Positions 15,488 to 56,674 of a stretch of 64,000 bases of DNA are shown here, one piece after another. The position numbers and the translations under genes were made by a program. Source of the DNA: a phage. The DNA lies in sequence record PZ476263.1; one strand, 5' to 3'. The first letter of the stretch is position 1, and the number at the start of each line of letters is the position of its first letter. The notes below the pieces were generated by a model. That model had not been told where the DNA came from and ran no database searches. It saw only the letters and a program-made list of their open reading frames with translations.

Positions 15488-16228
15488 ATGGCTTATGTAG
15501 ATCGCTACGATGCTGCACTTTCTGTATTCTTTTCCAGACATATGAGAAACGTGCATACAAATATCCGAGGGAGAGTTGTAGGCGTTAACTATGCAGTACC
15601 TTCCGTAGATGTTCAACCTATGGCACAAACTCAATTTGAGAATGGTACTGTGGATAAATTCCCTGTTCTTTATGATGTGCCTATAAACTTTCCTTCAGGT
15701 GCGGGTGGAAAGGCAAGATTGACTATGCCGATCAAAGTGGGGGATATGGTCGGCGTATCTTTTTCAGAAAGAAATGAATCAGATTTTAATGATGTTACCA
15801 CCCATCAATTATTCCCAGGGTGGGCAGTCACCCAAATATTTACAGACGGAAACTCTAAGGCTTCTCACCCAGACAACGTTGTGCTTGAAAATGATAAAGG
15901 ATCATTAACTTTCACGCCCGAGGGTAAAACAACATTGAAAAACGATGTTGCTACTTTTGACGTTTCTGAAACAGGTAAGCTTAACTATACAAATGGTCCC
16001 GCCAATCTTGAAATAGACGAATCGGGAAAAATGACATTCAGCAATGGGTCTGCGAACATAATAGCAAACCCTGGTGGATTGGTAACTGTAAACGGTTGTC
16101 AAATAACCCCTTCGGGGAACGTGATAACTGCATCCGGTATTGACTTAGAGCAATTCTACAGCGAATACAGAATCCATAAACACGGTGGTGTCGAAAGAGG
16201 TGGTGATATTAGTGGAGAACCAGTATAA
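15488..16228 (+). CDS. putative baseplate spike/plug protein
   Basis: 246 aa, position-based call. Confidence 0.3.
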   Translation: MAYVDRYDAALSVFFSRHMRNVHTNIRGRVVGVNYAVPSVDVQPMAQTQFENGTVDKFPVLYDVPINFPSGAGGKARLTMPIKVGDMVGVSFSERNESDFNDVTTHQLFPGWAVTQIFTDGNSKASHPDNVVLENDKGSLTFTPEGKTTLKNDVATFDVSETGKLNYTNGPANLEIDESGKMTFSNGSANIIANPGGLVTVNGCQITPSGNVITASGIDLEQFYSEYRIHKHGGVERGGDISGEPV

Positions 16229-16752
16229 TGGCAACAGTATTTAAAGATTTTCTTTTAAATCCGACAACTGGGGATCTTGATTTTAGTTCTCGAACCCTTG
16301 AGGTTGTCACATCTAACCAGATGAGCTTAAGACAAAGGCTTTATATCCGTTTTGGTATCTGGCAAGGAACTTGGTATTTCGATGAAGGTATTGGATTTCC
16401 TTACGGAATGTTTATCGCTAAGAAAACCTCTAAAACAGTTCTGGACAACAGGATAAAACAAGAAGTAAGACAAGAGCCAGATGTTATCGCAATAGAAGGC
16501 TTTACTTCTTCAATTGACGTGACTAGCAGAAGTTACAAATGCTTTTTTACGGTTGTTACTTCAGAAGGGGAAGAAATAAACTTTGCATTCTTAGGGGAGG
16601 ATGCTTTCGAATACCCTACCCCGCCAGAAGGTAACGTTGAATTGTGTGGTGATGTTGGTTCATTAATCGAATTTAAGAACAAGCTTTACTATCTTATCAA
16701 CTTCAGATTACCTAAATATGGTGATTCCACTTGGGTAAATAACTGGAAATAA
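16228..16752 (+). CDS. putative baseplate wedge protein (gpW/gp25/XkdS-like position)
   Basis: 174 aa immediately upstream of a J-like-sized gene; start overlaps upstream stop. Confidence 0.35.
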   Translation: MATVFKDFLLNPTTGDLDFSSRTLEVVTSNQMSLRQRLYIRFGIWQGTWYFDEGIGFPYGMFIAKKTSKTVLDNRIKQEVRQEPDVIAIEGFTSSIDVTSRSYKCFFTVVTSEGEEINFAFLGEDAFEYPTPPEGNVELCGDVGSLIEFKNKLYYLINFRLPKYGDSTWVNNWK

Positions 16753-16755
16753 CAC

Positions 16756-16780
16756 AAGGGAGCCTAGCGCTCCCTTTTCT
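16756..16780 (+). terminator. rho-independent terminator
   Basis: GGGAGC-CTAGC-GCTCCC followed by TTTTCTTTT. Confidence 0.5.
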
Positions 16781-18991: not shown

Positions 18992-20626
18992 ATGGCTATA
19001 CCAACTACGCCGATTGTTGTTTTTGCGGCACAAGATGTTAACCTTCCTGGTACTGGAAGACCAAACAAATCAAAACCTATTGATGATCTGTTGGCGAAAG
19101 GTTATGACAAGGGCCAGAAACCTGCGGCGGAAGAATTTAACTATATCCTCCACCAATCTGGAGCTTGGCTTTCTTATATCATCAATGAGAAGTTCCCCGA
19201 GGTAGAAGAGGAATATCGCAGACTAATCAACGAGCTTGAAAATCGTATTAACGAACAGATCACTATTATTCGTCAAGACGTTGCTGCGGTAAGGCAAAAC
19301 GTAATTGAATTACGTCAATACTTGGATCAACAGGTGGCGAATCTTCGTCGTGAGATTACTGCGGTTGACCAACGGGTTACTCGTTTATCTCAAGACTTGG
19401 ATGCGGCTGTTGCTAACCTTACTTCACGTATAGATGCATTGGAGCCTCGTTTAGTTCCAATTGGTGCAATCCTTACATGGGCAGGACAAACCCCGCCTGC
19501 GGGTTATTTAGAGTGTAATGGTCAGGTATACAATACGAACCAAAACCCGAAACTCTATCAAGTTTTAGGAAGAAACGTAGTTCCTGATTATCGTGGTTTG
19601 TTCCTTCGTGGATGGGCGCATGGGTCTAACGCATACGATCCTGATTCTGGTCGTGCATTGGGATCTATTCAGGGCGATGCAATCCGAAACATTACGGGCG
19701 CAATGGGATATGAAAGTATCCGTACTGACCACGGTTATCGTGAAACTGGTGCACTTTATACTCAGTACAATTCCAACAGTGGTCCAGACCATGACCGTAA
19801 AAACCCTGCGGGTGATGTACGGTTTGATGCGAGCCGTGTAGTTCCTACCGCTCCTGAGAACAGACCAAAAAACGCCGCAGTTATGTATATCATAAAAACT
19901 GATCAGGCTCAGGGTACGGGAAGTCTTTCTCCTACGTCCTTGATTACTACACCTGATACGATAACTAACCGTGTTGGATTTACTCAAGGGATTAGTGCTC
20001 AAGTTCTTCCTGCAAACTTAGCTAGTCAGTATCCGGTAACTTGGACATCACAAAACGGTAATGTTGCAACCGTGGATAGTGCAGGTAACGTAAGATTGAC
20101 CGGACCTGGTGAGACGAATATTATTGCCTCTATATCTACGGGATTGTCGGCGCAGGTTAGAATTGTATCCTATACCGCACTAACAAGTATTAGTATTGGC
20201 ACTATTCCAACCATAGAAGTTAACGGGTCTGAAGTTGTACCTATTAACAGAGTACCTGCAAACTCCAATGAACCTCTGGTTTATTCAACCAGTAATGCAA
20301 ACGTGGCAGTAGTTACCCAAGGTGGTTATGTTTCAGGTGTTGCTCCAGGGACAGCTGTTATTACTGTGCGTGGCTCTATTTCTGGCGCTCAAGCTACAAG
20401 ACAGGTAACTGTAATTCCTGCGACTGTTGTTCAAACTATCGAAGATGTTCGTTTAGGTATTGAACAGCAAACCACTATGAACGGTGACAACTACACGAGT
20501 CCAGTTCGTGCTCCGGCAGGTTGTGTTATCACAGGTGTTGTTTCTGCGGGTCTTGGTCTTAACCAAGGTTATTATAAACCAATCCAGAAGCTTATGTCCG
20601 GCGTTTGGGTGACAGTTCAAGGATAA
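18992..20626 (+). CDS. tail fibre protein with collar domain
   Basis: Coiled-coil heptads, then the phage tail-collar signature 'PIGAILTWAGQTPPAGYLECNGQVYN...NPKLYQVLG', then Ig-like beta-rich C-terminal region. Confidence 0.65.
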   Translation: MAIPTTPIVVFAAQDVNLPGTGRPNKSKPIDDLLAKGYDKGQKPAAEEFNYILHQSGAWLSYIINEKFPEVEEEYRRLINELENRINEQITIIRQDVAAVRQNVIELRQYLDQQVANLRREITAVDQRVTRLSQDLDAAVANLTSRIDALEPRLVPIGAILTWAGQTPPAGYLECNGQVYNTNQNPKLYQVLGRNVVPDYRGLFLRGWAHGSNAYDPDSGRALGSIQGDAIRNITGAMGYESIRTDHGYRETGALYTQYNSNSGPDHDRKNPAGDVRFDASRVVPTAPENRPKNAAVMYIIKTDQAQGTGSLSPTSLITTPDTITNRVGFTQGISAQVLPANLASQYPVTWTSQNGNVATVDSAGNVRLTGPGETNIIASISTGLSAQVRIVSYTALTSISIGTIPTIEVNGSEVVPINRVPANSNEPLVYSTSNANVAVVTQGGYVSGVAPGTAVITVRGSISGAQATRQVTVIPATVVQTIEDVRLGIEQQTTMNGDNYTSPVRAPAGCVITGVVSAGLGLNQGYYKPIQKLMSGVWVTVQG

Positions 20627-20631
20627 TAATC

Positions 20632-21144
20632 ATGAGAATGAATAATTTTAAAGTATACTCGCCAGAGGTTAAAGCTTTTGGTGAAGGAGTTCAATATTTT
20701 CAAGATGAAAAGGGAAGGGACTTCTATGAATCTCGTGGACTATTCAAAAAGAAATATGTAGTTTTCTTTGATGAGCACAATATAGTTCGTGGATGGGCAA
20801 AAAGTGAAGAAGTTACCCGTCTTCACCCAGGTGGTTTATCCGTTGTCGACCTGAATACCTTGCCGAAAGAATTTTCTTTACAGGATGGTGTGTGGTCATT
20901 CAATGGGAAACAGGTCGTTAAAGCCGACTATGATCCGGTATTTACCACGGAAGTAAGAAAGGCAGGTATTTTGCAAGTAATTGGGTCTGTTATCGCCCCA
21001 CTTCAAGATGCTGTTGAATTAGGAGAGGCTACGGAAGAAGAGACTGAAAAATACAATCATCTCCGCAGGATGAGAGTTAAAGTCATGCGTATTCCAGATA
21101 GCACTTGCCCCGCCGATATAGACTGGTCAGAGTTTACTGTCTAA
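20632..21144 (+). CDS. tail fibre assembly protein
   Basis: Directly follows the fibre gene. Resembles Tfa-type fibre assembly proteins by position and C-terminal region. Start moved to the ATG after the upstream stop. Confidence 0.5.
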   Translation: MRMNNFKVYSPEVKAFGEGVQYFQDEKGRDFYESRGLFKKKYVVFFDEHNIVRGWAKSEEVTRLHPGGLSVVDLNTLPKEFSLQDGVWSFNGKQVVKADYDPVFTTEVRKAGILQVIGSVIAPLQDAVELGEATEEETEKYNHLRRMRVKVMRIPDSTCPADIDWSEFTV

Positions 21145-21156
21145 TCTTACATTTAT

Positions 21157-21174
21157 GTCGGGCTTCGGCCCGAC
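21157..21174 (+). terminator. GC hairpin with UUCG loop, no U-tract
   Basis: GTCGGGC-TTCG-GCCCGAC with no T-run after it. Confidence 0.3.
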
Positions 21175-21186
21175 TGTGGAGAATCT

Positions 21187-21519
21187 ATGATTGTTGATTT
21201 AATGGCAGTATTAAAAGCACTATGGGGCCTATTAACATTCATTCTTTTAGGTGCACTTAAGATATTTTATTCCGACTTCAAAAAATTGGAGTCCCGTCAA
21301 AGTGAACTTGAAAAGGATGTTCTGCGACTTAAAGAATCTGCGGTCACTAAGGATAGTATTGATGCGATCCTTGACCGAAAAATAAAACATATTACTGATA
21401 CCATTCAAGATATCCGCGAAGATATCACCGACATGAGAAGGGAGGCTAAGGAAGAGAACCATGCTCTTCAGCGTGATATTCGCGAATTGTTGAATAAGAT
21501 CATAGAGGGTCGTAAATGA
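21187..21519 (+). CDS. membrane-anchored coiled-coil protein (holin- or spanin-like)
   Basis: N-terminal hydrophobic helix then a charged coiled coil. Confidence 0.35.
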   Translation: MIVDLMAVLKALWGLLTFILLGALKIFYSDFKKLESRQSELEKDVLRLKESAVTKDSIDAILDRKIKHITDTIQDIREDITDMRREAKEENHALQRDIRELLNKIIEGRK

Positions 21520-21974
21520 TTACAGCCATAATATATGGCCTTTGTTTTGTAATCCTTGCAACCCGAAAAGAGAGTGGCACGAAGATGGTGGCGGGGATTT
21601 GCCTCGCCTACCTGATTATCGAAAATATAATTTTGTATTATTTCAGCGGTATGATCGTCTTTGACATTTCTCTTTATTTTAATGTCCTCTGGGCATTGGA
21701 TTCGATACTGCTTTTCACTTTAGGTTGCACAGTGAAAGGATTAAGACAAAAGCTAATAGTCGGACTCAGTATACCTTTTATGCTTGTCCAAGTGTTTGCA
21801 ATCCAATACCCAGAACTTTTCCCTCTTTGGGTGTATGAATTCGCTTTCAAGGATGCCCACAAATATTTCATAGAGGTATTTGTGTTTGTATTTTCTTGGA
21901 AGGATAATACAGTCCCTGAGTGGATCAGAACAGCCATAGTAATATTTCTGGTCTTGATTGCTCATTTGGTCTGA
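21516..21974 (+). CDS. polytopic membrane protein
   Basis: About four hydrophobic segments; ATGA overlap with upstream gene. Confidence 0.4.
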   Translation: MITAIIYGLCFVILATRKESGTKMVAGICLAYLIIENIILYYFSGMIVFDISLYFNVLWALDSILLFTLGCTVKGLRQKLIVGLSIPFMLVQVFAIQYPELFPLWVYEFAFKDAHKYFIEVFVFVFSWKDNTVPEWIRTAIVIFLVLIAHLV

Positions 21975-21996
21975 ACATTGATAATGAAGGTGATCC

Positions 21997-22257
21997 ATGT
22001 TAAAATTTCTGAAAGACCTAGTAACCTCCGCAATAGAACCAGATAAGGCTTCACATACGAAGTTTTGGTCCAATGTGGGTATGGCAGCTATGACTGCTGT
22101 CTTTTTATGGTATGGGTTTAATAATACATTACCAGAGTGGTACGTTTGGTTGTATGCCCCAACCGTGGTTGCTCCGCACCTGTTGAGTGACCTAATTAAC
22201 CTTCGCTGGGGATTATCTCTTAAAAAGGATAAAGACCCTTCAGACGAAAACAAGTAA
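21997..22257 (+). CDS. small membrane protein, holin-like
   Basis: 86 aa, two hydrophobic segments, charged C-terminus. Confidence 0.35.
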   Translation: MLKFLKDLVTSAIEPDKASHTKFWSNVGMAAMTAVFLWYGFNNTLPEWYVWLYAPTVVAPHLLSDLINLRWGLSLKKDKDPSDENK

Positions 22258-22269
22258 GAGGAGACAACT

Positions 22270-25200
22270 GTGTCGTCTAATACCGATATTTTAGCTTTGC
22301 TTAATACGGAAGCGGATCAAGCTGTGGACCAAATCATTGAAGACTCTAGAAGACTTCACTTGGTGGTCAATGGTACAGGAACAGAACAAGTAGTTACTGA
22401 AGATGGTAGCCTGATTCCTACAATCCGTAAAGCAATTATTGATAATTTTTATTTCAAAACTCCACCTTTACCTTGGAGAAATGGAGGATCGGTTGTTGAG
22501 TTTAACCAACTGTATGCTTTCACCGATCTGAATGGGAATGTATCTTGGTGGTATGCTCCTGGTGCGACGAGTGCTTCTCCTGTTGTGATGAGAGATAGCC
22601 CAATCAATGATGGTAAGTTTAGACCATTCTTTGATAAAGGTAATATTCAAGACACTTACGCTCCGCTTCTTTCTCCGGCTTTCCGTGGAAACCCTACAGT
22701 ACCACTCCCTCCTGAGGGAGATTCTTCCTTTACCATTGCACCAACTGCATGGGTATCTCGCGAAATTGAAAAGGTCCGTGGTGAAATAGTTGAAGAATCT
22801 CGCGGTGAATTTCAAAACATTATTGTAAGGGACGATGCATCTCTTAAAGACCTCTACGTAAGTGGGGAAGCGATCTTTACAAGTGAGAGAATTGCTGCAT
22901 TGGATTCCGAGCTGTCGCTTAAGCGCTTAAGAATGGCAGGTCCACAAGCGGAGATGGCTTTTGAGCAAAATGGATCCTCCCCTGCTGCGGGACTTACCAA
23001 AAAGACAAATATAAAGCCTTATGAAATAACCACTGGCAGGTTCATTTCCAATACTGTGCAGGCTGACGAGATTAAAGTTGGTGATACCTCTCGTTCAGTA
23101 AACAGTTTGGATGTTGAAGGTTACATGCAGGCTGATTATTTACATCTGGAAGGTAATGCCAATAACGATGCGGAAAGACCTCAGTTAATTGTTGACGGCA
23201 TCGCAGAGATTAAAACTCTTCGCGTTATAGATACAATTGAAGGGTTGAAAGCTGACGTTGAAGGTCTAGATATTAACCCCAATAGTGTCGTAGTTGAAAG
23301 AACTTCAAGGGTAAAAGGTGCAGCAACTTTTGATTCTACCGTAAATGTATCCGGCACAACGACTTTAAATAATGTGGTTATTGAAGGTACGCTAACGGGC
23401 GCAGGGATCGGTGTTGACGGAAAAGATATTGCTCCTCGTTCAGTAAATGCGACTTCTGTAACTGTTGCACAAAATCTTAACGTAACTGGTGAGACTTTTG
23501 CAGCTGGGGATATGACTGTAAATAACCTTAGGGTTAACGGTGCACTCATCGCAGATATCGATATTGAGGGAAGTGATCTTAACTTCACCAACATTAACGT
23601 CTCAGAAAAAGCCACAATAAAAGACCTTGAAGTGACAGGAACTGTAACCGGATTTACTGTAAGTGTTGACGGAGAGGATATTTCTCCTGCAACGGTAACA
23701 ACCTCCGGCAATGTAACTGTTGGAAATAACCTTCGTGTCTCTGGCGATCTTACTGTAGATGGTGAACTGGCAATACCTGCCTTAGATACAGGAGAGATCA
23801 CTGCGGGAGATATTTCAGGTAATTCTTTAACCCTCGACGGCGATCTTACCACAGGTCCAGAGTCTACCACTCGTCTTCATAATCTCGTTGTCACAGGAAC
23901 GACCACAGGCCTCACTGTAACAGCGAATGTAGATGGACAAGACATTCTCCCATCCAGTGTCGCTACAGGCAATCTGGATGCATCTGGAGAGGTTTCAGCG
24001 GCATCTCTGTCGGTTACTGGGGCAACGCAAGTAAAAGACCTGAATATTACAGGGACTGTTACCGGATTACAGATCGATCTTTCTGACGAGGCGGTATCTG
24101 TTGATTCAATAACGGCAAGAAGAACTTCCAACTTCGCAGATATTAGTACGACAAATATCACAAATGCTGAAAAGATTACAACTCAGGATTTACAAATCCT
24201 CGGTGATCTTACAGATGCTGACGGTAACCCATTCTATGCCAATGTGACTGGTCAAGACATCTTACCTAACAGTGTTCAATCTGCAACATCTGTCCGAACT
24301 AAAACTTTACGTGTTGAAGAAACATCTCTTCTTGAAGGAACAGTTACTTTAAATAACGGATTGATTGTTACTGACGGGGACATAACTTCAACGCAAGGTA
24401 TTGCAAAGTTTAACGATGTTCAGATATTTGGTTCTTTAACAGATGCGAATGGTAATGGTATTGGCACTGTTGAAAGTATCCAAGGAAGAGATATTGCCCC
24501 TCGAAGTGTTGTGGCTCAAGTTGATGTTCAGGCCGCAGCCTTAGAAATAACAGGGCAGGCACATGTAGGTTCTTTGATTGTTGATGGAGAAACTACAACG
24601 AGCAGCATAAACATTTCAGGTATTGCAACTGCTAATGAAGTTATTGTTGACACGGTAAGGTCTGGTCAGATAACTTCAGGAAACGTAGTAATAACAAGAA
24701 CTGTAGGCTCTTCTGATCCGGCACTTGAAGTACGTGGCCCAGGGCAGATTCAAGGCGATCTCAGTGTTACTGGAACAATCTCTGGAAACATTGACCTGTC
24801 TGCCAAAGATATCAGTGTAAACTCTTTAACCTCAGCAGGAGCTATAACCGGAATATCTGTTTCTTCCAGCACTTCTGTAACTGGATTGTCTGCTACTTTT
24901 GGTGAAGATTACCCTGAAGCACCTGCCTACGGGATTACATCTTTATCTGGTGCAAACATTAATAAAAACCTTCGTGTTGGTGGTAATTTAACTGTTGTTG
25001 GGAACATCTCTGGAAACATTGATCTTAGTGGGAAGACTATCTCTCCGCAAGAGGTTGATGCAACCACGATTGGAGCTACAAATGCCAATCTGACCAACCT
25101 TACAGTTACCGGAAACCTGACTTTACCTTCAGTACCTTTGACTTCTCAAAGTCTTACGGCGGAGGGTCTTGTTAGTGCAGCTAAGTTTAGCACAACTCCA

Positions 25201-25503
25201 AAAGAAAATACAACCAGTTCTTCTACCTACATCCCTGACGGAACTACAAGCGTTTATAACGTTAACGTAGTAAACGATGTGGAAGTAAGAGCACCGTTGA
25301 ATTTGCTTACAAGTGCTAAAGGAGAATCAATTTTCCTGTTCTTCGAACAAGACTCCATCGGAGGTCATGCTGTAACCTTCGGTTCTGATTTTGTTATTCA
25401 TGGAAGTGAAACCATCAACACGGATCCTAGTTCAATAACTGTGGTAAACATGGTTTATCGTGGTAAAGGTCCTTTGATTGACGTTTTCATCACCCGTCGC
25501 TAA
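22270..25503 (+). CDS. large tail fibre/spike protein with tandem beta-repeats
   Basis: 1077 aa, GTG start with SD AGAGGAG. About eight imperfect repeats of '..TG.(V/L)TG..V.VDG(K/E/Q)DI(A/S/L)P.SV..'. Confidence 0.6.
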   Translation: MSSNTDILALLNTEADQAVDQIIEDSRRLHLVVNGTGTEQVVTEDGSLIPTIRKAIIDNFYFKTPPLPWRNGGSVVEFNQLYAFTDLNGNVSWWYAPGATSASPVVMRDSPINDGKFRPFFDKGNIQDTYAPLLSPAFRGNPTVPLPPEGDSSFTIAPTAWVSREIEKVRGEIVEESRGEFQNIIVRDDASLKDLYVSGEAIFTSERIAALDSELSLKRLRMAGPQAEMAFEQNGSSPAAGLTKKTNIKPYEITTGRFISNTVQADEIKVGDTSRSVNSLDVEGYMQADYLHLEGNANNDAERPQLIVDGIAEIKTLRVIDTIEGLKADVEGLDINPNSVVVERTSRVKGAATFDSTVNVSGTTTLNNVVIEGTLTGAGIGVDGKDIAPRSVNATSVTVAQNLNVTGETFAAGDMTVNNLRVNGALIADIDIEGSDLNFTNINVSEKATIKDLEVTGTVTGFTVSVDGEDISPATVTTSGNVTVGNNLRVSGDLTVDGELAIPALDTGEITAGDISGNSLTLDGDLTTGPESTTRLHNLVVTGTTTGLTVTANVDGQDILPSSVATGNLDASGEVSAASLSVTGATQVKDLNITGTVTGLQIDLSDEAVSVDSITARRTSNFADISTTNITNAEKITTQDLQILGDLTDADGNPFYANVTGQDILPNSVQSATSVRTKTLRVEETSLLEGTVTLNNGLIVTDGDITSTQGIAKFNDVQIFGSLTDANGNGIGTVESIQGRDIAPRSVVAQVDVQAAALEITGQAHVGSLIVDGETTTSSINISGIATANEVIVDTVRSGQITSGNVVITRTVGSSDPALEVRGPGQIQGDLSVTGTISGNIDLSAKDISVNSLTSAGAITGISVSSSTSVTGLSATFGEDYPEAPAYGITSLSGANINKNLRVGGNLTVVGNISGNIDLSGKTISPQEVDATTIGATNANLTNLTVTGNLTLPSVPLTSQSLTAEGLVSAAKFSTTPKENTTSSSTYIPDGTTSVYNVNVVNDVEVRAPLNLLTSAKGESIFLFFEQDSIGGHAVTFGSDFVIHGSETINTDPSSITVVNMVYRGKGPLIDVFITRR

Positions 25504-25504
25504 T

Positions 25505-25530
25505 AAAGGCCCTTCGGGGCCTTTTCTTTT
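25505..25530 (+). terminator. rho-independent terminator
   Basis: AAAGGCCC-TTCG-GGGCCTTT followed by TCTTTT. Confidence 0.55.
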
Positions 25531-28473: not shown

Positions 28474-28502
28474 ATCTTACCCCAACCTTTATTACCTGTC
28501 AA
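28474..28502 (-). promoter_or_regulatory. sigma70-like promoter
   Basis: TTGACA-N17-TAAGAT on minus strand. Confidence 0.45.
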
Positions 28503-28942
28503 TACTCTGCGCGAGGTTTAACTACACCAGCTTTAGAAATTGGAAGCTCATCTGCATCTTTACCACGAAGACTATTGATCCATTCCCGTTCTGTCATGAC
28601 ATATTCGTGGTTGTCCTCTTTTGCTAGGCGAACATAAATTTCATAAGCTGACTCTCCGACGGGTCCCATATTACCTCGATCACCTTGTGGACCAGATAAA
28701 ATCTTTTCTACCTGTGCTTTTTCAACGACAGGTTTTGATTTGTATAGCGACCAAATCAGCAGGCCAGTCCAAATAGCCAGACCCGCAAAAGGGTAAATCG
28801 ACAATACAAGTCCCAACAAAGAAAGGATTAAAATAATGTGTTTGTTAAGATGGTCCCGCTTATAAGCGATAACTACAGGAACAAACCAGATCGCCAATAC
28901 AATTAAAGACAGAAAAAGAAAAATTACTATTGCAACATCCAT
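28499..28942 (-). CDS. membrane protein, superinfection-immunity-like N-terminus fused to fibre-like motif
   Basis: Two to three hydrophobic helices ('PVVIAYKRDHLNKHIILILSLLGLV...GLLIWSLY'), then 'GPQGDRGNMGPVGESAYEIYVRLAKED...EREWINSLRG'. Confidence 0.4.
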   Translation of the reverse strand: MDVAIVIFLFLSLIVLAIWFVPVVIAYKRDHLNKHIILILSLLGLVLSIYPFAGLAIWTGLLIWSLYKSKPVVEKAQVEKILSGPQGDRGNMGPVGESAYEIYVRLAKEDNHEYVMTEREWINSLRGKDADELPISKAGVVKPRAEY

Positions 28943-28957
28943 AATGACCTCCTCAGA

Positions 28958-29161
28958 TTAATCGCTTAAAGTAACAGTATCGAAAAACACATCCCGCATC
29001 CACTCTTCAGCGGGACGAATGTAATAACCAGTTTTACCTAGAGATTGGTAATATTTTAAAATCTCTTTGGCAATATCTTTAGTCAAACCTGCCGCTACAA
29101 TACAGCCACCAGGTCCAGAGACTACATGTGTTTTGTATTTATCATTTTTGTTTTTGCTCAT
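28958..29161 (-). CDS. hypothetical protein
   Basis: 67-aa ORF. Confidence 0.3.
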   Translation of the reverse strand: MSKNKNDKYKTHVVSGPGGCIVAAGLTKDIAKEILKYYQSLGKTGYYIRPAEEWMRDVFFDTVTLSD

Positions 29162-29450
29162 TATTCTCTCCCTCTAATTTTTGTTTAAGTTTTTCTGCAT
29201 CCCAACTGTATGAGCTTGGAAGCCCCATTTTAACGTCACTATCTGTAAATGTACATAAAACACCTTTTGCGTCCTGACCCCGTTTAATTATAGAACTATT
29301 ATTATAGTTCGGTTGACTTTTACAAAATTTGTGCAGACTAATAATTTCACTTGGGGTTAAGGATGGTAATTTAGAATAAGAATCTGGTTTTTCATCTTTT
29401 AAATCACAACCTGCAAGAAGAAAAATAAAAGCAACGATTAATTTTTTCAA
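29142..29450 (-). CDS. putative lipoprotein
   Basis: Signal peptide with lipobox (MKKLIVAFIFLLAGC), TTG start with SD GGAGGA. Confidence 0.4.
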   Translation of the reverse strand: MKKLIVAFIFLLAGCDLKDEKPDSYSKLPSLTPSEIISLHKFCKSQPNYNNSSIIKRGQDAKGVLCTFTDSDVKMGLPSSYSWDAEKLKQKLEGENNEQKQK

Positions 29451-29451
29451 T

Positions 29452-29601
29452 TCACGATCCTCCCCAATACTTAAACAATTCTACACATGCGATTGTTGAC
29501 AGTATGAACCATATGGCACTTACAACATTTACATACAGGAATCTACAACCTGCCATAGAAACCATTATAAAGAGGCAGACAAAAGTTTTATAATCAATCA
29601 T
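29452..29601 (-). CDS. small hydrophobic protein (49 aa), not in ORF track
   Basis: ATG overlaps upstream stop (ATGA); product MIDYKTFVCLFIMVSMAGCRF... has two hydrophobic segments. Confidence 0.25.
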   Translation of the reverse strand: MIDYKTFVCLFIMVSMAGCRFLYVNVVSAIWFILSTIACVELFKYWGGS

Positions 29602-51502: not shown

Positions 51503-51692
51503 TAATGTATTCTCCTACTTCTTCAGGATAAAGGACGTATGATTTACCATCTTTAAGGCTCTGTGCATAATAACAGAATACACTACCATCGGAAACAACT
51601 TCATCATACTCGATGTCTAAAACTTTAAAAATATCATTTGCTTTTGGATGATCGTCTCGGTCGCTGTAATCAGCCTTTAAAAAGATTTTCAC
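51495..51692 (-). CDS. hypothetical small protein
   Basis: GTG start with SD GAGGAG overlapping the hydrolase stop; the 90-aa track ORF would overlap the hydrolase C-terminal frame. Confidence 0.3.
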   Translation of the reverse strand: MKIFLKADYSDRDDHPKANDIFKVLDIEYDEVVSDGSVFCYYAQSLKDGKSYVLYPEEVGEYINE

Positions 51693-52205
51693 TTTTTCTT
51701 CTCCTCTTTGTCTTTGTAAAAAACATGATTTTCTATTGTAACCGTACGCTTGAGAAGTTTTCTCCAAATTGGTTTAACCTTCTTCGTATGATAGTACAGA
51801 GATCCGTATGTCGGGTCAAGTCTTTTATAAAGTAATTCATTATCTTTTATTTTGTGAACAAACTTAGATATGTTTATCGCAACTTCCCATGAATCTTTAT
51901 CAGTGATTCGATAATCAGATTTAACAAGTGTCCATGAAAATTGTGAAGACTGGTAAAAACACCCCCTTCATGGTGGTAGGGAACTTATCATGTTTCATTC
52001 TGTTCATGGTCACAAAAGCAACAGCCATCTGACCATTAACTGTCTCACCTCTCGCCTCCATATAGACATTACAGGCAAGAGATTTTACAGAATTATCCTT
52101 CTTACTGCATTTATGGATAACCTTCTGTGCTCTCTCTTTGGCATAAGTAAAGCCTGGTGCCAGAGACAGAGTACAAACTAAAACACCTAAAACAATATTT
52201 CTCAT
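51689..52205 (-). pseudogene. SleB-type cell-wall hydrolase with signal peptide, frameshifted
   Basis: N-terminal frame: signal peptide plus 'YMEARGE...MAVAFVTMNRMK...FPTTMKGV'. The continuation 'QSSQFSWT...YYHTKKVKPIWR' is in the +1 frame, with the break in an A5/C5 homopolymer near 51956-51966. Confidence 0.5.
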
Positions 52206-56147: not shown

Positions 56148-56175
56148 ATTATACATGACCCTTATTGTGTGTCAA
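56148..56175 (-). promoter_or_regulatory. sigma70-like promoter with -10 inside an inverted repeat
   Basis: TTGACA-N16-TATAAT; 7-bp inverted repeat GGGTCAT/ATGACCC spans the -10. Confidence 0.5.
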
Positions 56176-56423
56176 GCAAAAATTAAAGAAAGTACCTTAA
56201 CAACGACCTGTGGGAACAGGATGATATAATAAACCCCTAAAAGTAAGAAAGGGATAATCAATAACTTTGACTTTACACTGAAAGTTTTATTGAACAAAGA
56301 TTTAATCTGTTCGTAAGTATTGATGATTGTCTGATAATAGGCGGCAGATCCTGAAAAAATACCGATAAGAATCAGAACCATTACACTCGCATTTTCAGAA
56401 ATTGTAAAAATTGCATCGATCAT
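56172..56423 (-). CDS. small membrane protein
   Basis: 83 aa, two hydrophobic helices. Confidence 0.35.
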   Translation of the reverse strand: MIDAIFTISENASVMVLILIGIFSGSAAYYQTIINTYEQIKSLFNKTFSVKSKLLIIPFLLLGVYYIILFPQVVVKVLSLIFA

Positions 56424-56425
56424 TT

Positions 56426-56674
56426 TTATTCTCCTTGGTTAATGGTGGAAACTGAAATACGGGTTTTACCTGTGCTGTAAGATGTACTTACCTGTGCACT
56501 TGGACAATAGATTGCACGTAGTGCAGGACCTTGACCACGTACAACGTAAATCTCACAACCTTTTGCCACAAGCTCTGGAGGAAGAACATAGCTATCTGAT
56601 ACTTTTTCCGTTTGTCGGTCGTCACATGCACTAATCATAAACACTAATGCGATTACTGTCAACAACTTTTTCAT
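56426..56674 (-). CDS. putative lipoprotein
   Basis: Signal peptide with lipobox (MKKLLTVIALVFMISAC). Confidence 0.4.
   Translation of the reverse strand: MKKLLTVIALVFMISACDDRQTEKVSDSYVLPPELVAKGCEIYVVRGQGPALRAIYCPSAQVSTSYSTGKTRISVSTINQGE

Follow-up and report, generated by a model that had tools for sequence, protein, structure and literature searches.

A 64,000-nucleotide stretch of phage DNA (sequence record PZ476263.1; hereafter the window, meaning the whole stretch) carries three small membrane-protein genes, here termed A, B and C, at positions 21187–22257 of the plus strand, inside its tail-fiber module. Gene C probably encodes a lysis-timing holin that has been missed in the annotation of rV5-like phages: its product is homologous to proteins encoded between the endolysin and spanin genes of small phages, so that it is probably a holin moved into the fiber operon. 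Within a lysis-module reading of the trio, we consider it likely that C acts in lysis in one way or another. For the fuller proposal, that the trio are late, non-virion inner-membrane proteins serving as the membrane arm of a dispersed lysis system with C as its holin, we put the chances at somewhat better than even; its inferred elements are hole formation by C, any part that A and B play in lysis, and A's topology.

Relatives of C in the lysis cassettes of small phages

Gene C (21997–22257, plus strand) is an open reading frame (ORF) of 86 aa whose product, a candidate class II-type holin, matches phrog_1322 (E 1.3e-29), a family labeled "membrane protein". A search of 1.84 billion proteins with a C-family profile (E ≤ 1e-3, representatives of 50%-identity clusters) recovered a superfamily of 296 cluster representatives. 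Its signature is SHTK-[FL]-W-[SA]-N opening helix 1, followed by a Gly/Ala-rich helix 2 ending ASKF-LS-LKYG. Among sampled members, 141 of 143 matched phrog_1322, and the only Pfam family to recur was DUF2644 (9 of 143, best E 6e-7); C itself gave no significant match in Pfam, DUF2644 included, in NCBIfam or in the PDB. Both phrog_1322 and DUF2644 are without assigned function, and a literature search found no paper mentioning DUF2644 or PF26221, the family of gene B. The family of the window's C and the small-phage family align over 78 columns with 99.6% probability in hhalign (E 1.6e-24), and reciprocal tblastn agrees.

The context of these relatives is a lysis cassette. The Mu-like Pseudomonas phage Bise has, in order, Mor, a Peptidase_M15_4/VanY endolysin, the C-like gene, an inner-membrane spanin (i-spanin) gene that holds an embedded outer-membrane spanin (o-spanin) with a lipobox and a Pro-rich sequence, a 92-aa protein with an N-terminal transmembrane (TM) segment and a coiled coil, and then the terminase genes. 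The start of the C-like gene overlaps the stop of the endolysin gene, and the endolysin lacks both TM and signal segments. The order recurs in Ralstonia phage YO098_1, except that the upstream gene is unrelated; it encodes a 160-aa protein with no Pfam match and, again, neither kind of segment. Of the non-spanin membrane proteins, only the C-like one is common to the two cassettes.

A wider census used loci gathered from IMG/VR contigs of ≤70 kb, often Mu-like, with a sub-family alignment of the C superfamily. Upstream neighbors of the C-like gene were peptidoglycan hydrolases in 14 of 21 distinct cases, of the VanY/M15_4 (8), M15_3 (3) and Amidase_2 (3) types, and 19 of 20 upstream neighbors were without TM segments. 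On the downstream side, an o-spanin-like ORF lay within 2.6 kb of the C-like gene in 31 of 51 distinct loci; the same detector scored 4/50 upstream, 1/51 on the reverse strand and 0/48 in tiles of the window. Proteins resembling the layout of Mu releasin, an N-terminal TM segment followed by a coiled coil, occur in two C-bearing cassettes (Bise orf92 and locus L042), and a third such cassette (L036) encodes a near-threshold DUF2730 protein (E 1e-4; 22.7 bits against a cut-off of 24.9). C-like genes are thus paired with several unrelated types of cytoplasmic endolysin and stand directly beside spanin genes, the genomic signature expected of a holin.

A superfamily member with three TM segments was also seen in a T4-like phage, as gene 037 of Stenotrophomonas phage Marzo (L022, 5908–6219). 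This solitary gene is flanked by the DNA polymerase gene and regA and lies on the opposite strand; the Ps15 paper does not report a holin for the T4-like Stenotrophomonas phages.

We also considered a prophage or bacterial origin of C. The scan of genome contigs returned one match only, on a phage-like contig of a metagenome-assembled genome, and this origin was rejected.

Gene C compared with class II holins

The C protein begins with an amphipathic helix, after which come the conserved SHTKFWSN motif and a pair of hydrophobic helices with a short turn between them; its hydrophilic C-terminal tail is variable. Membrane segments were called with a Wimley-White octanol scan, for which 11 soluble structural proteins of the window served as the control (most hydrophobic 19-residue stretch, −5.7 kcal/mol); the two helices of C scored −8.2 (residues 23–41) and −9.6 (residues 35–53). 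This layout resembles that of class II holins such as S68 of lambdoid phage 21 and T7 gp17.5, which are likewise small, with two helices around a short periplasmic turn, both termini predicted to be cytoplasmic, weakly hydrophobic helices containing polar residues, and a hydrophilic C-terminal tail. Unlike these holins, C has an unusually conserved aromatic-rich core and carries the SHTK-x-WSN motif with its N-terminal amphipathic helix.

Several observations weigh against a holin. The helices of C are only marginally hydrophobic on the Kyte-Doolittle scale, and an AlphaFold model (helices 2–9, 20–41 and 47–71) has low confidence, with a mean predicted local distance difference test score (pLDDT) of 60.7. 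The tail has a net charge of about zero or below throughout the C family, being mixed or acidic and not basic as in classical holins, and there is no dual-start motif. No curated holin family of Pfam or NCBIfam was matched by C or its 143 relatives. The rV5 annotators did not mark gp29, the C homolog of that phage, as a membrane protein. In three phage groups C never leaves the baseplate/fiber operon, and its rate of evolution is as low as that of baseplate proteins, both of which would also fit a morphogenetic role. An antiholin or another lysis accessory would likewise suit the endolysin-spanin slot of Mu-like cassettes, and no experimental test of any C-superfamily member turned up in the literature searched.

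The last of these roles deserves separate weighing. C could be a lysis accessory and not the hole-former: an antiholin, a pinholin-type depolarizer, or a release factor for secreted or signal-arrest-release (SAR) hydrolases such as the SleB-like enzyme described below, with the holin encoded elsewhere, for example by a gene of the rV5 gp129 type. Its atypical non-basic tail and very high sequence conservation would suit such a role. A SleB-like hydrolase with an export signal needs no large holes, the Mu lysis cassette shows that non-holin membrane proteins are possible in such a setting, and other holin candidates have been proposed in relatives. Against it, the gene upstream of the C-like gene lacks any TM or signal segment in both Bise, where it is a Pfam-confirmed M15_4 enzyme, and YO098_1, where it has no Pfam match; TM segments are likewise missing from nearly all upstream neighbors in the census; and no non-spanin membrane protein other than the C-like one is shared by the Bise and YO098_1 cassettes. 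We regard an accessory role as unlikely and favor C as the holin itself.

The literature on rV5-like phages leaves room for such a gene. Several papers identify no holin or name inconsistent candidates (rV5 gp129, CB7_82, two small proteins of BME3), and CRISPRi-ART fitness data for the rV5-like phage EdH4 cover the targets MCP and rII only.

A late transcription unit of baseplate and fiber genes

The window is closest to the rV5-like myophages of the Vequintavirinae, the nearest being Escherichia phages UPEC06, A7_1, A5-4, A73 and W70, at ∼81% nucleotide identity. Contigs of up to 141 kb, obtained in several independent runs, encode proteins identical to those of the window. The 64 kb represent less than half of a genome of ∼141 kb. 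Head, tail, baseplate and fiber genes occupy the plus strand from 1 to 26.8 kb; small early genes and replication genes occupy the minus strand from 26.8 to 57.7 kb. In a census of ∼100 putative genes, A, B and C were the sole membrane proteins of the 27-kb late plus-strand region.

The sequence-only reading had described three membrane-protein genes between a fiber-assembly gene and a giant fiber gene, and this description was borne out: all three are same-strand ORFs at exactly these coordinates, with membrane character in the Wimley-White scan. Upstream lies a tail-fiber assembly gene (20632–21144, plus strand), identified by a Caudo_TAP profile match, which is the invariant upstream neighbor of gene A across lineages. 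By machine calling this ORF starts at a TTG at 20605, overlapping the short-fiber gene; sibling contigs and relatives start at the ATG at 20632, giving 170 aa. Before it comes the short tail fiber (18992–20626, plus strand; 544 aa), a homolog of the phiTE short tail fiber (PDB 9cuy chain c, E 3e-200). Downstream of the trio is the long tail fiber (22270–25503, plus strand; 1077 aa), a homolog of the phiTE long tail fiber with PF26208/PF26209, whose N-terminal 503 residues match the protein in PDB 9cuy (E 9e-235). The long fiber contains about eight degenerate copies of a module TG-x-VTG...DG-x-DI-x-P-x-SV, which fits the extended beta-helix predicted for the phiTE long tail fiber.

Strong terminator-like hairpins were found at only three places, starting at 16756, 25505 and 26779. 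The first (16756–16776, plus strand) marks the start of the trio's transcription unit, and the second (25505–25524, plus strand), a strong hairpin just after the long tail fiber gene, marks its end. Scanning 16.8–25.5 kb revealed no comparable terminator and no convincing separate promoter. A promoter of C's own was rejected: the promoter-like match at 21978–22006 overlaps the start codon, and counts of promoter-like matches were not above those in shuffled sequence. The hairpins at its ends and the lack of a convincing internal promoter place the trio inside one late baseplate/fiber transcription unit, and it is from this position in a terminator-bounded operon that late expression of C is read. 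A Shine-Dalgarno-like sequence precedes each of the three genes.

All three are real genes under strong purifying selection. With phage UPEC06 as the reference for every gene, the ratio of nonsynonymous to synonymous substitution rates (dN/dS) was 0.014 for C and 0.098 for B, as compared with 0.038 for the baseplate wedge gene and 0.055 for the short fiber gene; for A, dN was 0.056 and dS was saturated.

A C homolog is carried by 377 phage records, which span all Vequintavirinae, the phi92/phAPEC8 group (Stephanstirmvirinae) and Aeromonas Plateaulakevirus. Its position shifts within the operon. In Vequintavirinae, C directly precedes the long-fiber gene, and rV5 has an extra fiber gene separating it from A; the phi92 group has C directly upstream of the wedge gene, whose start is at or overlaps the last base of C. 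Identities of C and of the wedge protein to their homologs run in parallel: 98 and 93% for UPEC06, 81 and 75% for PcCB7V, 59 and 51% for PVP-SE1, 49 and 50% for rV5, and 38 and 30% for anhysbys. Among GenBank records, 15–21 "Campylobacter phage" entries (MG0656xx) carry A and C of the rV5 type, whose identity to the query equals that seen in E. coli phages of the rV5 group; from their sequences these look like mislabeled or contaminant coliphage genomes.

Absence from virions and the question of a morphogenetic role

Detection in virions had been named as a result that would speak against lysis proteins, and the evidence from four relatives (phiTE, phi92, rV5 and CB7) is negative. Virion models are available in the PDB for phiTE (9cuy/9mjn) and phi92 (21vq). 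The wedge protein of the window matches both, and its two fibers match phiTE (E < 1e-200); a PDB search that included these models found no chain matching A, B or the C-family profile. The structural paper on phi92 does not mention gp144, the C homolog beside wedge protein gp145. There is no mass spectrometry evidence for rV5 gp29 (C) or gp31 (A) in virions, and the 26 CB7 virion proteins found by mass spectrometry skip the three genes between the assembly protein and the fiber. Small hydrophobic proteins can escape mass spectrometry. We take the virion models and proteomes of relatives together to rule out a virion-component reading of A, B and C. An ESCO5 homolog is annotated "structural protein". 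The trio has been seen before, as gp44, gp43 and gp42 of PVP-SE1, annotated in GenBank as "membrane protein" with 1, 4 and 1 transmembrane domains (TMDs), respectively, and without assigned function.

A role in assembly without presence in the virion must also be weighed: A, possibly together with C, could be a membrane-tethered morphogenetic factor that anchors fiber or baseplate intermediates or chaperones the long fiber, with no part in lysis. Gene position speaks for this, since A is always between the tail-fiber assembly gene and a fiber gene, in five lineages, and C either directly precedes the long-fiber gene (Vequintavirinae) or has its end overlapped by the wedge gene start (phi92-like phages). 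The baseplate-like rate at which C evolves and the "structural protein" label of the ESCO5 homolog, whatever its basis, point the same way. On the other side, the small-phage homologs of C are in lysis cassettes beside terminase genes and not in tail modules, and C has no soluble domain with which to bind a fiber. Absence of the trio from virion models and proteomes also tells against it, though a chaperone would be absent too. We judge a purely morphogenetic role distinctly unlikely.

Another role often met near receptor-binding genes is exclusion. The trio could be superinfection-exclusion or host-takeover "moron" proteins of the membrane, blocking DNA entry or receptor access of competing phages. 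The PHROGs category of phrog_1322 is moron/host takeover, A weakly matches a PHROG labeled "bacteriocin production or immunity" (E 9e-4), and exclusion genes elsewhere are often beside receptor-binding genes, such as llp and cor of T5. Yet the trio lies in a late operon with no promoter of its own, is kept across phages that use different receptors (flagella, lipopolysaccharide, capsule), and behaves as core and not accessory genes; no Imm_superinfect or related family was matched by A, B or C, and C homologs have a lysis-cassette context. We consider exclusion very improbable for the trio. A better exclusion candidate in the window is a 147-aa protein encoded at 28499–28942 (minus strand). 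Two very hydrophobic helices lie at its N terminus, it weakly matches both Imm_superinfect and a PHROG labeled "superinfection immunity", and a short GPQGDRGNMGPVG stretch within it is collagen-like.

Gene A resembles Mu releasin in architecture

Gene A (21187–21519, plus strand; 110 aa) is an ORF with a phrog_5345 match (E 2e-35) and encodes a membrane-tethered helical protein. It has a 10-residue N-terminal tail, a TM segment at about residues 11–29 (−9.2 kcal/mol), a basic juxtamembrane FKK, and an 81-residue charged, coiled-coil-like helical tail. No significant match was found in Pfam, NCBIfam or the PDB. A was found in 237 phage records. Its homologs always lie 3′ of the tail-fiber assembly gene: rV5 gp31, PVP-SE1 gp44, phiTE_238, Aeromonas 2L372X_075 and those of phi92-like phages. 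Inspection added the phi92/phAPEC8 group, in which the gene after the fiber-assembly gene (L005, 8969–9304; L009, 8933–9274) is annotated "lipoprotein" and has no lipobox; it is an A-like protein with an N-terminal TM segment, a coiled coil and an ELEKK...ATKAEL motif.

The known lysis protein that A recalls is the releasin of phage Mu, gp25, a 99-aa protein of the DUF2730 family with its N terminus outside and C terminus inside, four periplasmic residues, a basic pair at the junction and a 73-aa cytoplasmic domain; its gene is within five genes downstream of the endolysin gene (PMC9239132). A and gp25 share a length of ∼100 aa, a very short acidic N-terminal tail, one TMD and a near-neutral helical tail of 67–90 residues (75–86 in the A family) that is predicted to be cytoplasmic. 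The A family also follows gp25 in its charges: its N-terminal tail of 4–11 residues has 0–1 lysine or arginine (K/R), and the first 15 residues past the TM segment have 3–5. Unlike gp25, A lacks DUF2730 sequence and has no endolysin gene within 30 kb.

Two points count against placing A in the proposed lysis system. The DUF2730 profile did not match any of five A-family members at E values up to 10, while the Mu gp25 control scored 2.5e-13. The topology of A, N-out/C-in, is a fit from K/R counts alone, and i-spanins break the same rule, which makes this a weak argument. By hhalign, A reached 4.6% probability against Mu gp25 and 27% against Bise orf92. The profile search and hhalign together rule out A as a DUF2730 sequence member, so that its resemblance to releasin is one of architecture only.

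Two other assignments of A were tried and set aside. As an i-spanin it would be expected to have a partner, and no lipobox or Pro-rich ORF exists in any frame of 21100–24900; the spanins of relatives lie elsewhere. Nor was the SleB-like hydrolase supported as a specific partner of A, since the Hydrolase_2 family is found in 1358 phage records of many kinds.

Gene B is an accessory membrane protein

Gene B (21516–21974, plus strand; 152 aa) encodes a polytopic membrane protein with four strong TM segments in the Wimley-White scan and a match to phrog_7451. Its start overlaps the stop of A (ATGA), coupling B translationally to A. It was assigned to PF26221 (Phage_phiTE_239), a family named after a phiTE gene and without assigned function, from a precomputed match on a 99%-identical protein (P0045) and from the same gene in sibling contigs. 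Searches of NCBIfam, the PDB and a local Pfam copy that does not include the PF26221 model gave no significant match. Only 107 phage records carry B; Vequintavirus (rV5), Stephanstirmvirinae (phi92 group) and the Aeromonas relatives lack it. Because several lineages keep A and C without B, B is an accessory protein.

The P2 lysis cassette combines a holin (Y), a four-TM antiholin-like protein (LysA) and an i-spanin (LysB), whose genes flank that of the endolysin K. The trio is like it in general shape only: a small holin, a four-TM modulator and a coiled-coil protein with an N-terminal TM segment. Unlike the P2 proteins, A has no o-spanin partner, and the trio flanks no endolysin gene. An antiholin-like role for B, by analogy with LysA, is only a guess.

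Hydrolases and spanins

The sequence-only reading had further held that the trio adjoins no endolysin and that the sole hydrolase candidate, ∼30 kb away on the other strand, is secreted and frameshifted. The first statement stands, with no endolysin within 30 kb of the trio in the window. The second stands for the window, where the nearest hydrolase to the trio is a SleB-like (Hydrolase_2) peptidoglycan hydrolase at 51689–52205 (minus strand), with a hydrophobic N-terminal leader; the frameshift is private to this assembly, and relatives have a separate cytoplasmic endolysin in a region beyond the window. The break in the gene is a local indel plus substitution that changes the frame near 51955–51966. 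One contig of another sample (L018; SRR17836600) agrees with the window throughout ∼800 aligned bases except at the break site, where it has GGGGGTTGTTTACC in place of the window's GGGGGTGTTTTTACC; its gene (1931–2446) is intact and encodes 171 aa. A pattern scan of viral contigs for the frameshift site found no match. With the gene intact in this sibling, the frameshift probably arose in assembly or as a private mutation and is not a property of the lineage.

The SleB-like hydrolase is probably not the main endolysin. The separate endolysin of relatives is rV5 gp89 (Phage_lysozyme) or CB7_190 (an M15 peptidase), and the relatives' spanin pair adjoins the large terminase gene. The window yielded no further endolysin, and a detector for lipobox and Pro-rich ORFs, run on both strands of the 64 kb, found no o-spanin-like ORF; this suggests that the spanin pair, reported in relatives to adjoin the large terminase gene, is located just beyond the window. 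A linkage of C to endolysin or spanin genes is accordingly not seen here.

In UPEC06, an ORF of 65–70 aa with two TM segments directly follows the SleB-like gene (L003, 2439–2651), and at the same place in the Certrevirus CB7, CB7_82 has been proposed as a class II holin (CB7 paper). This ∼200-nt gene is deleted both in the window (around 51690–51700) and in L018, and a CB7-type two-TM holin beside the SleB-like gene was rejected for this lineage.

Two other kinds of gene in the window touch on lysis functions by name or form. The gp25-like baseplate gene at 16228–16752 is annotated "tail lysozyme" in relatives. At 29142–29601 and 56172–56674 (both minus strand), in the early region, a lipoprotein ORF with a lipobox (LLAGC and MISAC, respectively) is beside a small TM ORF; neither lipoprotein is Pro-rich, unlike o-spanins.

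A proposed dispersed lysis system

We propose the following course of lysis. C, with two helices and both termini in the cytoplasm, would build up in the inner membrane during late expression and permeabilize it at a set time. A cytoplasmic endolysin encoded elsewhere in the genome would thereby reach the wall, and spanins would then disrupt the outer membrane. A, and B where present, may tune the timing of C or the release of endolysin as antiholin-like or releasin-like partners. The sequence-only reading had left two alternatives, that lysis timing is separated from the hydrolase or that these are not lysis proteins at all. For C, the homologs in the endolysin-spanin slot favor the first; A adds only its architectural likeness to Mu releasin.

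An isolated holin amid fiber genes is not unusual. The holin gene t of T4 follows gene 38, and the holin gene 17.5 of T7 follows gene 17, both far from the endolysin genes. As with C, a late holin gene is beside tail-fiber or fiber-assembly genes, with the endolysin gene tens of kilobases away. The spanin genes are elsewhere too, near the terminase gene in T7, as is reported for rV5-like phages. The likeness ends at gene order: C has no sequence relationship to either holin, T4 T combines a single TMD with a large periplasmic domain, and C is in the middle of a fiber cluster, with one or two extra membrane-protein genes. The arrangement of a holin gene beside fiber genes was therefore already known; what appears to be new is the assignment of the family of C to the holin slot.

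A more elaborate possibility is that A and C, with B where present, form an inner-membrane complex that couples fiber and baseplate assembly to the lysis clock, the coiled coil of A sensing or binding the fiber-assembly machinery and gating C. Such an assembly-lysis checkpoint would explain why a gene of a holin family is kept in the baseplate/fiber operon across three groups and evolves at baseplate-like rates. We think it quite improbable. A weaker variant would make A a releasin of diverged sequence whose target is the exported SleB-like hydrolase.

If C is a holin, as we think probable, proteins of the phrog_1322/DUF2644 type would fill an annotation gap in rV5-like (Vequintavirinae) and phi92-like (Stephanstirmvirinae) phages, which are widely used candidates for therapy and biocontrol. 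Some 300 cluster representatives (50% identity), now labeled "membrane protein / moron", would be relabeled. Releasin-like tethered helical proteins outside the transposable phages would, in turn, broaden the range of a lysis mechanism whose descriptions so far come only from Mu-like phages.

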